Below are positions 1,909-59,162 of a stretch of 64,000 nucleotides of DNA, one piece after another. Each line of letters begins with the position of its first letter. The first letter of the stretch is position 1. The notes beneath the pieces were generated by a model. It did no database searches. It saw only the letters and a program-made list of their open reading frames with translations, and had not been told where the DNA came from. The translations under genes and the position numbers were made by a program. This DNA comes from Mesorhizobium amorphae (GTDB taxonomy: Bacteria > Pseudomonadota > Alphaproteobacteria > Rhizobiales > Rhizobiaceae): the NCBI GenBank assembly GCA_003240775.1, contig QFNI01000019.1, forward strand, positions 671 through 64,670, given 5' to 3'.

Positions 1909-3075
1909 TCAGCCGGCAAGGGTTGCGACGGGTGCGGGCGCCTGGGCCTGCGGGCGGCGGCGCAGCCAAGCGGTGAGCGCGAGAGCCAGCGCAAAGAGAA
2001 GTCCGTTCACCGCAAAGGCGACGGGATAGGCGAAACGCTCGGCCATCTCGCCGAACAAAAGGGGCGCGGGAATGCGCGGGAGCGCCGTGACGAGCGCGAG
2101 CACGCCGAGCGCCTGGGCTGCCGCAAGACCCGCATAGCGCGGGGCGAGCGAAAAGCCGCATGGCACGAGGCAGCCCGTGCCTGCGCCGATCAGCGCGAAG
2201 CCCACAGCACTTTGGGCGAACGAAGTGCTGGTCGCCACCACGGCGAAGCCCAAGGCCGCCCCCAGGATCGACAGTTCCATCACGCGCAGATCGCCGAGCC
2301 GACGGCGGAACCGGTCGGCCCAGCATCGCACGAGGCCCTGGCAGAGCGAGAACGCGGTGGCGCCGAAGCCGGCATAGGCCGCAAGCTCGGGCGACTGGGC
2401 GGCGAGCGCGGGTGCCGAAAACATGATGGCCGCCATCTCGCCGGCGATGCAGATGCCGACGATCAGGCCGAGCAGCACGATCGGCCGGTTGAAACGCCAT
2501 GATTGCGGGGGCGCGGTGTCGTCGAGTGCGGCCACGGCGCGACGAGGGGTCAGGCGGCGAACGGCGATCAGCGCTGCGCCATAGACGAGGCAGGCGAGAA
2601 GGGCGGTGGCCAACGGGCCGCCATGCGTCATCACTAGGCTGCCGAGGATGGCGGTCGCGGCCGAGGCGAAGGAAGCGGAGGCGTGGAACCCCGCGAGAAC
2701 GGGGCGGCCGATCTCGGCTTCCACCGCCGTGCCTTCGGCGTTCATCAGGCCGTCGAAAGCGCCCGCGACGAGGCCGAAAGCGGTGATGCCCGCGAGAAAG
2801 CCGGCCGGGCTCTGCACGTTGAGAAGCACGATCAGGGCGGCCATGGCGAGCGCGATGGAACACAGCAGCAGCGTCTTGATCGATCGGCTGCGCGAAAGAA
2901 CGCCGCCGCCGGCCATGCCCAGAAGCGACGCCGCGATGAAGGTGGTGACGGCATAGCCCAGCAATTGCGGCGTCATGCCGGAGCGCAGCGCAACGCTCGC
3001 GATGGCGCCCGCCCAAAGGCCGTAGCCCGCGCCAAAGGCGATGAAGGCAGCGAAAACAGCGTGGCGCGGTGTCAT
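1909..3075 (-). CDS. MFS transporter
   Basis: Many hydrophobic helices and a motif-A-like segment (WADRFRRRLGD); start probably MTPRH (3075) or 3090. Confidence 0.85.
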   Translation of the reverse strand: MTPRHAVFAAFIAFGAGYGLWAGAIASVALRSGMTPQLLGYAVTTFIAASLLGMAGGGVLSRSRSIKTLLLCSIALAMAALIVLLNVQSPAGFLAGITAFGLVAGAFDGLMNAEGTAVEAEIGRPVLAGFHASASFASAATAILGSLVMTHGGPLATALLACLVYGAALIAVRRLTPRRAVAALDDTAPPQSWRFNRPIVLLGLIVGICIAGEMAAIMFSAPALAAQSPELAAYAGFGATAFSLCQGLVRCWADRFRRRLGDLRVMELSILGAALGFAVVATSTSFAQSAVGFALIGAGTGCLVPCGFSLAPRYAGLAAAQALGVLALVTALPRIPAPLLFGEMAERFAYPVAFAVNGLLFALALALTAWLRRRPQAQAPAPVATLAG

Positions 3076-41596: not shown

Positions 41597-42145
41597 TCAG
41601 GCCGCGCTCGACCCCATCACCTGCGAGGCGATGGCGTCCGGCCCGTAGTCGGAGTCGCCCGAAATCTTCAGGATGTCCTGCAGACGCGTGCGCGCGCGGC
41701 TGACCCGGCTCTTGATGGTACCAACCGCGCAGTTGCAGATGTCTGCGGCCTCCTCATAGGAGAAACCCGACGCGCCGATCAGAATGATCGCCTCGCGTTG
41801 GTCTTCCGGCAGTTGTTCGAGCGCGTGGCGGAAATCCTTGAGGTCGAGCATGCCGTGCTGGGACGGATGCACGGCGAGCCGGCCCGTCATCACGCCATCG
41901 GTGTCCTGCACCTCGCGGCCACGCTTGCGCATCTGCGAGTAGAACTCGTTGCGCAGAATGGTGAAGAGCCAGGCCTTGAGGTTCGTGCCGGGCTGGAAGC
42001 TCTCGTGCTTGTCCCAGGCCTTGACCAGCGTCTCCTGGACGAGATCGTCGGCCTTGTCGGCATTCTGAGACAGCGAGACGGCGAAAGCTCTCAGGCTCGG
42101 GATCGCGCCGAGCAAGTCCTGCTTGAAACCGGGGGAAACGACCAT
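41597..42145 (-). CDS. ecfG: ECF sigma factor EcfG (RpoE2/SigT type)
   Basis: LRAFAVSL, DDLVQETL, FQPGTNLKAWLFTILRN and GTIKSRVSRAR; nepR/phyR context. Confidence 0.95.
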   Translation of the reverse strand: MVVSPGFKQDLLGAIPSLRAFAVSLSQNADKADDLVQETLVKAWDKHESFQPGTNLKAWLFTILRNEFYSQMRKRGREVQDTDGVMTGRLAVHPSQHGMLDLKDFRHALEQLPEDQREAIILIGASGFSYEEAADICNCAVGTIKSRVSRARTRLQDILKISGDSDYGPDAIASQVMGSSAA

Positions 42146-42149
42146 CGTC

Positions 42150-42350
42150 TCACCCTTCCTCTTTTTGTGCGGACTCGGCCCGCTCGAGCCGGCTCAGGAG
42201 GTCGGCGAAGCGGTCGGGAACGGCATCGGAAACTCGATCCTCGTAATACTCCTTGAGCTTGCGGCCGATTTCGGAATGGTTGCCCAACGGATCGCCTTGG
42301 CCCGCAGCATCCGAGCTGTGCGGCCCGGCGGCGGTCTCATTGTCCTGCAT
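42150..42350 (-). CDS. nepR: Anti-sigma factor NepR
   Basis: IGRKLKEYY...VPDRFADLLSRLE, directly upstream of ecfG. Confidence 0.92.
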   Translation of the reverse strand: MQDNETAAGPHSSDAAGQGDPLGNHSEIGRKLKEYYEDRVSDAVPDRFADLLSRLERAESAQKEEG

Positions 42351-42728: not shown

Positions 42729-43523
42729 ATGGGTTTGTCCGCAACCATTGCGCCGCATCTTCCGTTTCTCCGGCGCTTCTCGCGGGCTCTGTCCGGTTCC
42801 CAGTCCAGCGGCGACGCGCTCGTGAGCGCGATGCTCGAGGTTCTGATCGCTGATCCCAGCGCCTTCCCGAAGGCGTCGAGCGATCGCATCGCGCTCTACA
42901 AGGTCTTCGCCAAGATGTTCTCCACGGTCGCCATCCGCGTGCCGCAGGAGATGCCGACGGCCATCTGGGAGCAGCGCGCCAAGGCCAACCTGTCCGCCCT
43001 CGCCCCCCGCGCCCGTCAAGCGTTCCTGCTGGTCGCCGTTGAGGGCTTCGACGAGACCGAGGCGGCCGAAATCCTCGATGTGGACGACAAGGAGTTCTCG
43101 CAGCTCCTGACCGATGCCAGCAACGAGATCTCCCGCCAGGTCGCGACCGATATCATGATCATCGAGGACGAGCCTCTGATCGCGATGGACATCGAGGAGA
43201 TGCTGGAAAGCCTCGGCCACCGCGTGGTGGGCGTCGCGCGCACGCATTCGGAAGCCACCGCGCTCTTCGCTAGCAGCAACCCCAAGATGGTGCTGGCCGA
43301 CATTCAGCTGGCCGACGGCTCCTCGGGCATCGATGCGGTGAACGAGATCCTTTCCACCGCGCCCGTTCCGGTGATCTTCATCACCGCATTCCCCGAGCGC
43401 CTGCTGACCGGCGAGCGCCCGGAGCCTGCCTTCCTCGTCACCAAGCCGTTCAATCCCGACATGGTGAAGGCCTTGATCAGCCAGGCCCTGTTCTTCGACA
43501 GTCAGGCCAAAGCAGCGGCCTGA
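42729..43523 (+). CDS. phyR: Anti-anti-sigma response regulator PhyR
   Basis: Sigma-like N-terminus (LPFLRRFSRALSGSQ) plus receiver (ADIQLADGSSG, FITAFPERLLTGERPEP). Confidence 0.96.
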   Translation: MGLSATIAPHLPFLRRFSRALSGSQSSGDALVSAMLEVLIADPSAFPKASSDRIALYKVFAKMFSTVAIRVPQEMPTAIWEQRAKANLSALAPRARQAFLLVAVEGFDETEAAEILDVDDKEFSQLLTDASNEISRQVATDIMIIEDEPLIAMDIEEMLESLGHRVVGVARTHSEATALFASSNPKMVLADIQLADGSSGIDAVNEILSTAPVPVIFITAFPERLLTGERPEPAFLVTKPFNPDMVKALISQALFFDSQAKAAA

Positions 43524-43849: not shown

Positions 43850-44905
43850 ATGACCGCACCTTCCTATAGCGGGCTTGTGTCCGAGCGCGGACCGCCTCTT
43901 GGCGAGAGTTCCGAACATGCGGTTCTGGGCGTCGAGATCGGCGCCGTCACACCCGAGATGCGAGGGTTCGAGGAAGGCCTCGTGAGGGCCGTACGTCATG
44001 CGGGCGCTTCTGTGCTCGCACAGGGGCACGATCTCCGTATCCTCTGGACGGTCAATCTCCCCTCCCCCTGGAGGCGCGCCCGGCCAGGGATGCGCGAGAG
44101 CGAGTTCCTGCCGGAGAGCGAGGCTGCGAAGCTCGCCGAAGTGAAGCGGCGGGTGCTGGCCACCGGGCGCACCGAAAGCATCGATCTCGCCATCAACACG
44201 CGCTGGTTCGACATTTGGATCGACCCTTGCCTCGACGCGGCGGGCTCTATTGCCGGCGTCGTCACGACGATCGTTGACACCACCGAGCACCGCCAGCGCG
44301 AGCAGGTGCTGCGCACGCTCCTGCGCGAGGTCAGTCATCGCTCCAAGAACCTGCTCGCCATCATCCAGAGCGTTGCGGCTCAGACCGCACGCTATTCCGA
44401 CACGATCGAGCAGTTTCTCGAACGCTTTCGCGGTCGCTTGCAGTCCCTTGCCTCCTCGCAGGATCTCGTCACCCTGTCCAACTGGCGCGGTGCCGATTTG
44501 TCCGAGCTCGTGGCCGACCAGATCCGGCGTAGCGCGGTGGAGCCGCGCAACCGCATCCGCTTCACCGGCGTGAACCTGCACCTCAATCCCAATGCCGCCC
44601 TTCATATCGGGCTGGCCCTTCATGAGCTGACCACGAACTCGCTCAGCTATGGCGCCCTGTCGCAAGCCGAGGGGCAGATCGCCATCGACGCCAAGCTGGT
44701 GGAGACCGGCGGCGAGCGTCGTTTGCGCATCCTGTGGAACGAGAGTTTGACGGGGGCGAGCGAGGGAAGCCCCGAGAAGCGCTTCGGCAGCCTCGCGCTT
44801 GAACGTGTGGTGCCCACCTCCCTGCGCGGTCGCGCCGAGTGGCGGATAGGGGCACACGAAGTCACCTATGACCTGGTAGTCCCCGCAACGAGCGTGCTGT
44901 CCTGA
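43850..44905 (+). CDS. PAS HWE-family histidine kinase
   Basis: EVSHRSKN, HELTTNSLSYG and WNE; GGAGG RBS. Confidence 0.9.
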   Translation: MTAPSYSGLVSERGPPLGESSEHAVLGVEIGAVTPEMRGFEEGLVRAVRHAGASVLAQGHDLRILWTVNLPSPWRRARPGMRESEFLPESEAAKLAEVKRRVLATGRTESIDLAINTRWFDIWIDPCLDAAGSIAGVVTTIVDTTEHRQREQVLRTLLREVSHRSKNLLAIIQSVAAQTARYSDTIEQFLERFRGRLQSLASSQDLVTLSNWRGADLSELVADQIRRSAVEPRNRIRFTGVNLHLNPNAALHIGLALHELTTNSLSYGALSQAEGQIAIDAKLVETGGERRLRILWNESLTGASEGSPEKRFGSLALERVVPTSLRGRAEWRIGAHEVTYDLVVPATSVLS

Positions 44906-44948: not shown

Positions 44949-45071
44949 AAAAAGCCGGCCACGCAGGGCCGGCTTTCTGGTTTGGGTCGAGGGGGGGGGG
45001 GGTCGAGACCCAAGCCTCTGCAACGGCGCCGCGGGGGTGGGGGTGGGGGGCTGCGGCAGCCGCTTCATCGG
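44949..45071 (-). ncRNA. Candidate sigma-EcfG-dependent sRNA with C-rich loops (cuckoo/alpha-r14- or GsrN-like)
   Basis: Upstream GGAAC-N17-GTT; two hairpins with loops CCCCCCACCCCCACCCCC and C12; terminator GCCGGCC-loop-GGCCGGC-TTTTT. Confidence 0.7.
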
Positions 45072-45077
45072 CCAGAC

Positions 45078-45102
45078 AACTGCGACCCACAGCGATGGTT
45101 CC
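45078..45102 (-). promoter_or_regulatory. Sigma-EcfG promoter (sRNA candidate)
   Basis: GGAAC-N16-AGTT. Confidence 0.7.
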
Positions 45103-45143: not shown

Positions 45144-45168
45144 GGAACCCGCTCGGCAAGCAGTCGTT
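45144..45168 (+). promoter_or_regulatory. Sigma-EcfG promoter (small ORF 45195)
   Basis: GGAAC-N16-CGTT. Confidence 0.75.
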
Positions 45169-45194
45169 AACGGGTCATGGGAAGAGGATAGGCC

Positions 45195-45371
45195 ATGACC
45201 ATGGAAAGCCGCCACCTTGAAGATGCTGCCCGCCGTGGGATGGGTTCGCTGTCCTCCGACGATTTCAAGGCGGAGCGCAGCAATGGTTGGCTGACCGGCC
45301 ACTACACACGCATCGTCCTCTTTGCCTCTACCGTGGTGATGAGCGGCGCTCTCGGCTACGGCACATTCTGA
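45195..45371 (+). CDS. Small protein, 58 aa, with C-terminal hydrophobic segment (not in the ORF track)
   Basis: GAGGA RBS; MTMESRHLEDAARRGMGSLSSDDFKAERSNGWLTGHYTRIVLFASTVVMSGALGYGTF; consensus EcfG promoter upstream. Confidence 0.6.
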   Translation: MTMESRHLEDAARRGMGSLSSDDFKAERSNGWLTGHYTRIVLFASTVVMSGALGYGTF

Positions 45372-45529: not shown

Positions 45530-45784
45530 ATGAAGAAAATCATGCTTGCGCTGAGCCTGGTCGGCGCCACTGCCGTGACCGGTTGCACCACTGCCGAGCA
45601 GACTGCTGTTGCGGGCGCCGCCGGCGGCGCCGTGATCGGCGGCATTGCGGGTGACACGTCGGGTGCGCTGATTGGCGCCGGCGCCGGCGCGGTTGCCGGT
45701 TACCTGATCGGTCGCGCGGCCGAGCCCGGCCAGTGCCGCTATCGCGACCGTCGTTCGGGCCGCGTCTACACCGCGCGCTGCTGA
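45530..45784 (+). CDS. Glycine-zipper lipoprotein
   Basis: Lipobox VTGC, GAAGGAVIGG..GAGAGAVAG, C-terminal CRYRD...C. Confidence 0.85.
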   Translation: MKKIMLALSLVGATAVTGCTTAEQTAVAGAAGGAVIGGIAGDTSGALIGAGAGAVAGYLIGRAAEPGQCRYRDRRSGRVYTARC

Positions 45785-57151: not shown

Positions 57152-58048
57152 TTGACGCTTGAGCAGTTGCGCATCTTCGTGGCCGTCGCCACGCGGGAAC
57201 ACGTCACGCAAGGCGCGCGCGACCTCAACCTCACCCAATCCGCGACCAGTGCTGCCATCGCGGCACTCGAAGCGCGCTACGCCACCAAGCTCTTCGACCG
57301 CGTGGGCCGCCGCGTGGTGCTGACCGAGGCCGGCCGCGTCTTCTTGGAAGAAGCGCGCGCCGTGCTCGCCCGCGCGAGTGCTGCCGAAACCGTGCTGGCG
57401 GACCTTGCCGGTCTCAAACGCGGCAGCCTGCGGGTCGCGGCCAGCCAGACCGTCGCGAACTACTGGCTGCCCCACCACCTCGCCCGCTTTCACGAGGCCT
57501 ATCCCGGCATCGCCGTTCAGGTGACCATCGGCAACACCGGCACGACGGCGGCCCTGGTCCACGAAGGTTCGGCCGATCTCGGCATCATCGAAGGCGCGAT
57601 CGACGACCCCCATTTGGCGATCTCCACCGTCGCGCAAGACGAGCTCGTGCTCGTGGTTTCGCCCCACCACCCCTGGGCGGGCATCGAGCAGCTGGAGCCG
57701 GCTGCGCTTGAAACCTCGCGCTGGGTGCTGCGCGAGCCGGGCTCTGGCACCCGCCAGGCCTTCGAGGAGGCGCTGGGCTGCGCGGGCCTCGCGCTGGCCA
57801 ATATCGAGGTGGCGCTGGAAATCCCATCCAACGAGGCGGTGCGCGCAGCGGTCGAGGCGGGCTCGGGTGCCGCCATCATGTCGCGCCTCGTGGTCGAGCA
57901 GTCCGTGCGGCTCGGCACGCTGGCGCTCGTGCCCTTCGCCCTGCCCCCGCGCCGCTTTCTCGCGCTTCGCCACAAGCAGCGTCACGTCACACGCGCGGCG
58001 GAGGAGCTTTCCCGCCTGATCGCAGAAGGATTGCAGCCTGCGCGATGA
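57152..58048 (+). CDS. LysR-family regulator (CysL/YeiE-like)
   Basis: TLEQLRIF..LTQSATS..LFDR and REPGSGTR. Confidence 0.92.
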   Translation: MTLEQLRIFVAVATREHVTQGARDLNLTQSATSAAIAALEARYATKLFDRVGRRVVLTEAGRVFLEEARAVLARASAAETVLADLAGLKRGSLRVAASQTVANYWLPHHLARFHEAYPGIAVQVTIGNTGTTAALVHEGSADLGIIEGAIDDPHLAISTVAQDELVLVVSPHHPWAGIEQLEPAALETSRWVLREPGSGTRQAFEEALGCAGLALANIEVALEIPSNEAVRAAVEAGSGAAIMSRLVVEQSVRLGTLALVPFALPPRRFLALRHKQRHVTRAAEELSRLIAEGLQPAR

Positions 58049-59162
58049 CGCGCTCTTCCTCGGTCGGCAGCACGTGCACCGAGACCGAGCTCCCATCTGA
58101 TGAGATCGTGGGCGCGTGTCGGCTATTTGAGGCAGCGTCCAGCCCAAGCCCGAGCCAGCCCAACTGCTCCACGAGTTGCGCACGGATCGGGCTCGCGTTC
58201 TCGCCGATGCCACCGGTGAACACGAGCGCGTCGATCCCGCCGAGTGCTGCAGCGCAGCCGCCCACTTCCTGCGCCAGCCGGTCCACGAACATGGCGACGG
58301 CAAGCCCAGCCGTCTCGCTCCCGTCTGATAGCAAGTCCCGCATGTCCGAGGTGATGCCGGACACGCCGAGCAGACCAGCCTCTTGGTTGAGAATGCGCCC
58401 GACCTCGCGCCAGTCCCCGCCATGCCGCTCCACCAGCCAGAGCACGGCGCCCGGATCGAGCCGCCCGGGCCGCCGGCCCATCATGAGCCCGTCGAGCGGC
58501 GTGAAACCCATCGTGGTGTAGACCGAGTGTCCCTCGACAAGCCCGGCCAGGCTGCACCCGTTGCCGAGGTGGCACAGGATCACGCGTCTCCCTGCCCTGT
58601 CGCCCAGAAGAGCCGGCAGCCTGTCCGCAAGGCTCTGATAAGAGATGCCGTGGAAACCGAAGCGCAACAGCCCTTCAGCCGCGAACCGCGCGGGCAACGC
58701 CATGCGCTGGCGGTGGAGCGGGATCGTGCGGTGAAACGCCGTGTCGAACACGGCCACCTGGGGCAAGGCGGGGTCAAGCCGCTCGACGGCGTCGATGCCT
58801 GCGAGGTTGTGCGGTTGGTGCGCGGGCGCGAAGGGCGCGAGAGCGGCGATCTCCGCGCGCGTCTCCGCGTCGATCGCCACCGGCTCCGTGAAGCGCGTGC
58901 CGCCGTGCACGATGCGATGGCCCACAGCCGCGAGCCCGCCGAACCGGTCGCCCACAAGTTCCAGAAGGGCTGCAATGGCACCGCGGTGATCGCGACAACC
59001 ATGAGGCAGTGCCGCTTCTTTCCCGTCTATCCTCATGCGCGGCACGAGGCCGGCGCCCAAGCCCTCGACATCCCCCGACAGCACCCGCCGCAACGCGGTG
59101 TCGAAGATGCCGAATTTCACCGAAGACGAGCCGCAATTCAGCGCTAGAACCGTTTCCGTCAC
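57987..59162 (-). CDS. ackA: Acetate kinase
   Basis: LNCGSSSVK, GHRIVHGG, FDTAFH, HLGNG, FTGGIGEN and PTEEE; GTG start after GGAGG. Confidence 0.93.
   Translation of the reverse strand: MTETVLALNCGSSSVKFGIFDTALRRVLSGDVEGLGAGLVPRMRIDGKEAALPHGCRDHRGAIAALLELVGDRFGGLAAVGHRIVHGGTRFTEPVAIDAETRAEIAALAPFAPAHQPHNLAGIDAVERLDPALPQVAVFDTAFHRTIPLHRQRMALPARFAAEGLLRFGFHGISYQSLADRLPALLGDRAGRRVILCHLGNGCSLAGLVEGHSVYTTMGFTPLDGLMMGRRPGRLDPGAVLWLVERHGGDWREVGRILNQEAGLLGVSGITSDMRDLLSDGSETAGLAVAMFVDRLAQEVGGCAAALGGIDALVFTGGIGENASPIRAQLVEQLGWLGLGLDAASNSRHAPTISSDGSSVSVHVLPTEEERVIAQAAILLRSGGKAPPPRV

Follow-up and report, generated by a model that had tools for sequence, protein, structure and literature searches.

In the alphaproteobacterial stress response, PhyR is phosphorylated upon stress and takes NepR off EcfG (PMC3892343). 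[quoted passage not shown] 2018, PMC5869019). A follow-up preprint adds osrP as a target of GsrN (10.1101/344820). Two rhizobial RNAs, ReC64 and SmelC601, have been described separately, with no target given in their published descriptions and no model in Rfam, and their transcription was reported to depend on EcfG and RpoE2, respectively (PMC3892343, PMC3616915). ReC64 of R. etli lies behind the kinase gene tcrY and is an 85-88 nt RNA of the minus strand that gave an additional, larger band of unexplained origin on northern blots (Vercruysse et al. 2010, PMC2881028); 5' RACE located its start, and an ecfG1 mutant no longer expressed it (Jans et al. 2013, PMC3892343). SmelC601 of S. meliloti, of 127 nt, is located between rsiB1/phyR and SMc01503, has an RpoE2 promoter and gave a signal log ratio of 2.30 upon rpoE2 overexpression (Schlueter et al. 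2013, PMC3616915); its published family model consists of five Sinorhizobium sequences only (PMC3927594). Bsr6 of Brucella has been reported to be RpoE1-dependent (PMC12772402), and the cuckoo RNAs are defined by CCUCCUCCC in each of their hairpin loops (PMC4615179). The relevant parts of four other papers (PMC7143759, PMC4167512, PMC3184786 and PMC5596092) held nothing decisive for the RNA described here.

In the window, which is the whole stretch of 64,000 nucleotides that was analysed, we propose with good confidence that the edge of the phyR-nepR-ecfG island holds a conserved RNA gene with three hairpins and an EcfG-type promoter, that this gene is the likely orthologue of ReC64 and SmelC601, and that its RNA, predicted to be made under stress, would use its two exposed loops, both rich in C, to pair with G-rich parts of other mRNAs. 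The sequence of this gene, its computed fold, its conservation with compensatory changes, its promoter motif and its position were established in the present analysis. Pfam assigned an ecfG-like sigma factor, nepR, phyR, a DUF1328 gene and an HWE kinase to the locus, confirming that it is a phyR-nepR-ecfG island (Table 1). The RNA gene is intergenic and close to ecfG-nepR-phyR; it lies just past the kinase gene and converges on it without overlap, an arrangement identical to that of the ReC64 loci.

Table 1. Features of the stress island and of the RNA gene, in window coordinates
Feature	Coordinates	Strand	Basis or remark
nepR and ecfG-type sigma factor gene	41597..42350	-	PF18557, sigma-70 r2/r4; NF009199
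phyR	42732..43523	+	NF006623 above cut-off; Pfam
HWE histidine kinase gene, stop at 44905	43850..44905	+	Pfam PF07536
Predicted sRNA, ~121 nt	44949..45069	-	start by analogy with the mapped SmelC601 start
Intrinsic-terminator-like hairpin (44973-44954) and U5 (44953-44949)	44949..44973	-	sequence, fold
Hairpin 2, C12 loop (C run 45002-44991)	44982..45013	-	fold; relatives have a shorter CCCCUC-type loop
Hairpin 1, C-rich 20-nt loop (45052-45033)	45022..45064	-	fold and alignment A6
EcfG-type -10 box, AGTT	45078..45081	-	16-nt spacer after GGAAC; consensus CGTT
EcfG-type -35 box, GGAAC	45098..45102	-	sequence; conserved in aligned long members
Consensus EcfG promoter (45144-45168) and 58-codon ORF (45195-45371)	45144..45371	+	back to back with the RNA promoter

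The promoter, the two C-loop hairpins and the terminator claimed in the first-pass annotation were all found at their positions on the minus strand (45102-44949) when the sequence was checked. With AGTT one mismatch away from CGTT, the -10 box of sigmaT as defined in the methods of Tien et al. (PMC5869019), GGAAC-N16-AGTT is a near-consensus promoter of the EcfG type. The start, previously placed at 45071, is now predicted at 45069-45068 by analogy with that mapped for SmelC601. The minimum-energy fold had -57.6 kcal/mol, as compared with -43.6 +/- 3.4 kcal/mol for shuffled sequences (z -4.06, with none of 200 shuffles equalling it), a score to which the terminator alone contributes part. The C-rich loop of the 5' stem-loop is predicted to be exposed, its modelled unpaired probability being mostly 0.8-0.9 or above. 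The C12 loop of hairpin 2 was borne out, but the UCGA pairing proposed along with it was not, for the minimum-energy fold leaves an 18-nt loop. The C12 run, at its length as assembled, exceeds every other C/G homopolymer of the 4.35-Mb assembly. A simple terminator scan called no terminator and missed the hairpin at 44973-44954, in our reading because an A-U extension of the stem consumes the U tail. The 58-codon ORF on the other side of the RNA promoter matched no Pfam or NCBIfam family; by eye, a small ORF resembling it seems to follow the kinase gene in many Mesorhizobium loci without the RNA.

Only a single tRNA, distant from the RNA gene, reached the Rfam gathering score in the window, and the RNA itself matched no Rfam family, alpha-r14/cuckoo and GsrN having been named beforehand as the entries to look for; at E<=10 it gave seven matches of chance level, none of them alphaproteobacterial. 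Rfam was likewise blank for 12 homologue loci, the ReC64-type loci, SmelC601 and one short-form locus. The RNA resembles cuckoo and alpha-r14 RNAs in being built of modular adjacent hairpins, in its C-rich loops and in the variability of stems and of hairpin number (PMC4615179), and differs from them in its EcfG-type promoter, in the missing Rfam match and in its loops, the proposed derivation of which from cuckoo loops is not supported, as CCUCCUCCC occurs in 0/24 long and 0/21 short members (0/45). We liken it to GsrN by design and position, that is, by a SigmaT/EcfG promoter, an exposed C-rich loop and the vicinity of the stress locus; GsrN has one recognition loop in contrast to the two found here, and its target katG was not found in this genus.

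Two genomes of this genus gave BLAST matches to the RNA. When 80 phyR loci, each with up to 8 kb of flank, were searched with the covariance model R2, 15 carried the long form at E<=3e-5 and it was not found in the other 65, which were mostly of Mesorhizobium and some of which were short or truncated. The GGAAC box was present in 17 of the 18 aligned long members, the eighteenth (L054) having GCAAC; the R models themselves do not include the promoter. The 17 long homologues that were folded singly, a set from which L054 was left out as it has no GGAAC, showed mostly two C-rich hairpins and the terminator, with z-scores from -3.2 to -8.1. In the 18-row alignment A6, 87% of the cells were paired, as compared with 72% in shuffled controls, and two-sided changes were seen in 22/32 pairs (13/14 in hairpin 1 and 8/9 in hairpin 2), showing that the stems, on whose conservation in relatives the first-pass annotation had staked its reading, are strongly diverged in sequence and keep their pairing. 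As A6 was fitted to the structure, these counts lean to the favourable side, and more weight was therefore given to the single folds and to the promoter. RNAalifold on a plain MAFFT alignment recovered the terminator and nothing else, the stems being too diverged for such an alignment; the terminator is the sole part conserved in sequence. Together, the folds, the promoter and A6 support a structured, conserved RNA gene with an EcfG-type promoter and a GsrN-like design.

Motifs were counted in 24 of the 25 long members, one having been missed by the script. CCCCUC was present in the second loop of 21/24. Nearly pure poly-C loops, as had been described from this sequence, turned out not to be a trait of the family: the longest C run is 12 here and only 5-10 in the other 23 long members, so that the C12 run, at the length assembled, appears to be a local expansion. 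One member of about 170 nt (L150, G148:C11:208771-208938), at the usual site behind the kinase gene, has an additional hairpin separating the C-loop stem from the terminator.

The same genome contains a 75-nt paralogue (C30:11811-11884, minus strand; locus L018/L101) upstream of a TerC-family gene. It has one C-loop hairpin, the terminator core of the island RNA and a GGAAC promoter of its own, was found in 5/5 genomes of the genus, and shows compensatory changes in its stem. The short-form model R1 matched hairpin 2 and the terminator of the window RNA with 43.8 bits. Among the best 30 R1 loci in 146 genomes of the family, the promoter was at the expected distance in 22, as compared with 54 of 11043 random positions; these 22 comprised 19 short forms, two of which were training sequences, and three long ones, and the remaining eight loci were terminators or other RNAs, one of them Rfam ar15. 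In one genus the short form was matched in 25/26 genomes, with the promoter in 11/11 of those inspected. The flanks of the short form vary, EamA and acyltransferase/AMP-binding genes recurring among them, and such forms occur in many genera of the family, frequently with an EamA gene on one side and an acyltransferase gene on the other. A literature search by name and keyword returned no description of the one-hairpin form, a type of search that leaves an earlier description possible. It is likely that the paralogue and the island RNA share targets. Another locus of this genome (L189, C7:68221-68298, minus strand) has a hairpin with a pyrimidine-rich loop and the same terminator core without an EcfG promoter; it scored 36-40 bits with R1/R3 and is possibly a 3'-derived RNA.

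The novelty initially attributed to the RNA did not hold, as it matches ReC64 and SmelC601 in phyR side, promoter, architecture and loop motifs. The published ReC64 probe matched 5/401 genomes of the family, all of one genus, and the promoter, the pair of C-loop hairpins and the terminator recurred in all five loci, facing the kinase gene, with 121 nt to the U tract. The ReC64-type RNA and ours alike are encoded on the minus strand past the kinase gene of the phyR operon, towards which they are transcribed, and have an EcfG promoter, two C-loop hairpins and an AGCCGG-type terminator; the ReC64 type differs in an extra small hairpin within stem 1, in C runs of 5 and in stem sequences that are unrelated. 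For SmelC601 (SMc_sRNA_298) we used a metagenome contig that was located by the promoter and carries the sequence printed in Reinkensmeier et al. 2011 (PMC3927594). It had the same three hairpins, its loop 2, AUCCCCCCUC, being the consensus motif of the clade, and resembles our RNA in its length of 127 nt, its RpoE2 promoter and its orientation, convergent on rsiB1/phyR; in contrast, SmelC601 lies directly beside phyR with no intervening kinase gene and its first C motif is shorter. The small inner hairpin beside the 5' loop, absent from the fold of the window RNA, was seen in the folds of ReC64, SmelC601 and a few clade members; it figures in the legend of Fig. 9C in Tien 2018, outside the three search criteria of that paper (PMC5869019).

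Model R3 was built from the 18 clade rows with ReC64 and SmelC601 excluded. Its top full-length match was the ReC64-type RNA in 5/5 loci, with weak scores of 15.1-24.8 bits, the lowest of which ties with the best control, and SmelC601 was the top match in its locus with a similarly weak 17.8 bits (6/6 loci in all). In 21 unrelated control loci (70.6 kb) the best score was 15.1 bits and the others were <=11.1, and scores within the clade (36-120 bits with R2) were far above those of ReC64 and SmelC601. The models also gave scores of 30-43 bits to terminators and to other RNAs with C loops (one being Rfam ar15), so that position, promoter and architecture carry as much of the case for homology as the scores do. 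R1 gave only a misplaced terminator match of 9-15 bits on the ReC64 loci. Outside the family, R3 matched 15/140 other genomes of the order at E<=1e-4 and the promoter was at the expected place in 0/18 loci inspected, so that we claim no members there. SmelB126, an RpoE2-driven multicopy RNA, was considered as a counterpart and rejected, as its fold is different, it has no C-loop hairpins and R3 gave no match at its position.

By analogy with GsrN, PhyR would free EcfG from NepR and EcfG would transcribe the RNA from 45069-45068. Hfq, the gene of which is present in this genome, would stabilise the RNA, which might be processed to a stable form that lacks the terminator, and the open loops would pair with G-rich mRNA leaders, activating or repressing translation as GsrN does. 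The larger northern band of ReC64 may be the full transcript, because 88 nt from the predicted start, counted on the sequence of a ReC64 homologue, end at the base of the terminator; this suggests that the stable form of the homologue would be one without the terminator.

Regarding targets, the ackA leader put forward in the first-pass annotation was not sustained. The complementary 9-mer occurs 260 times in the genome, the leader ranked 189/3964 for loop 1 (RNAduplex), and ackA was found with this query in 2/5 genomes of the genus, the upstream region of the other copy having no G tract; the ranks were obtained with a crude gene caller of our own and RNAduplex without accessibility, the ackA start having been entered one base off. 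The ackA gene itself (57987-59162, minus strand; Pfam acetate kinase) was missed by the codon-based gene caller and, being present in 2/5 genomes of the genus, was possibly acquired. GsrN activates a glycine-zipper protein in Caulobacter (10.1101/344820), and a glycine-zipper lipoprotein gene lies close to the RNA (45530-45784 of the window, plus strand) and is also nearby in several homologous loci. As an osrP-like target this neighbour was rejected, with a rank of 1264-1618 of 3964 and no notable complementarity in its leader. The proven GsrN target katG was found in 0/5 genomes of the genus, and this genome, which is 96.6% complete, had neither katG (TIGR00198) nor a PF00199 catalase at E<=1e-20; it is the exception among the five, the other four having the monofunctional catalase family, by eye with no shared upstream G tract. 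Loop complementarity was not enriched among genes with EcfG-type promoters (p 0.44-0.66). The complement of the shared short loop gave 26 matches with <=1 mismatch in three genomes of the genus; three were the sRNA genes themselves, and among 18 of the other 23 that were examined none were orthologous to one another and no target site was shared. Ranking, conservation and shared-site searches in the genus genomes thus identified no target.

The low model scores (15-25 bits), the low complexity of C-rich loops, the commonness of the terminator core in these genomes and the missing inner hairpin in stem 1 would also fit an independent invention, in which an RNA of the same kind, with an EcfG promoter, C loops and a generic terminator, arose beside phyR by convergent evolution without being homologous to ReC64 or SmelC601. 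We consider this unlikely, as strand, phyR side, length class and hairpin order are all shared, the loop 2 motif of SmelC601 fits the clade consensus, and all these RNAs belong to one bacterial family. We regard it instead as a real, conserved stress-sigma sRNA gene and a further member of a described kind, likely of the ReC64/SmelC601 family; the findings suggest that ReC64, SmelC601 and this RNA form one family, patchy across Rhizobiaceae sensu lato, with a short paralogue at other loci. This leaves the kind of system unchanged, offers a model and many divergent homologues usable in comparative target prediction, and opens a way to ask how general GsrN-like riboregulation is in the stress response of Alphaproteobacteria. 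A leaderless mRNA or dual-function RNA, with the peptide as the product, was also considered, because a proline-rich frame of 52 codons begins with an AUG at the predicted start, an ATG or GTG occurs within a few bases of the predicted start in 16/24 long members, and the members of the genus start with MKRLP or VTRLP. Nevertheless, such frames range from 16 to 80 codons with neither end nor sequence conserved, 9/16 have no stop before the terminator region, the start codon forms part of stem 1, and ReC64-type RNAs, SmelC601 and 20/21 short members have no such start, so that a coding role is very improbable. As for the terminator hairpin, 45 nt past the kinase stop and the only part conserved in sequence, it may also end the convergent kinase transcript. 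That this should be its whole function and the rest unexpressed spacer is hardly credible, considering that relatives retain the promoter, the two stems and the two C loops, with compensatory changes, that matching RNAs are reported as expressed in R. etli and S. meliloti (PMC3892343, PMC3616915), and that the U tail is on the RNA's own strand.

A different set of partners for the RNA was suggested by a palindromic intergenic repeat with a G-rich tail, present in about 140 copies in this genome, often as inverted pairs, and in none in this contig. The repeat, which we take to resemble the CIR class, accounts for the excess of G tracts in the genome. Its tail 10-mer, which ranges from 2 to 191 copies over 41 genomes, occurs 191 times here against about 10 expected; loop 1 is complementary to the tail over 11 bases (-30.4 kcal/mol, accessibility costs excluded), repeat-bearing leaders were among the top duplex matches, and 76/173 intergenic copies of the 10-mer lay at most 150 nt past a gene, in sense orientation. 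The main partners here could then be the repeat tails, bound in untranslated regions or soaking up the RNA. This is improbable in view of several observations: between tandem genes there was no strand bias (43 sense versus 50 antisense), 92/140 copies had an inverted partner at <=250 nt, which would mask the tail, and the short loop was near-invariant across genomes of the genus in which the 10-mer occurs 5, 12 and 13 times. The link between loop and abundance over 36 genomes was weak, with a raw p of 0.048 among kin that are not independent, 0.096 after subtracting the matches of the sRNA genes themselves and 0.16 leaving out this genome, and at least 25 copies were present in 3/13 versus 4/23 genomes. 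An equally small chance is given to the extended form of this idea, in which the two EcfG-driven C-loop RNAs would use the G-rich tail as a ready-made site and the C12 stretch would be a response to the expansion of the repeat; if true, dozens of transcripts that carry the repeat would be addressed by a stress sRNA, or would titrate it, all together.

A further observation was made in three of the loci (L069, L079 and L082, at about 2140-2275, minus strand), where the leader of a gene whose product starts with MIRTL, perhaps the PRC-barrel gene of the island, has a hairpin containing a C-rich stretch behind a second GGAAC promoter.
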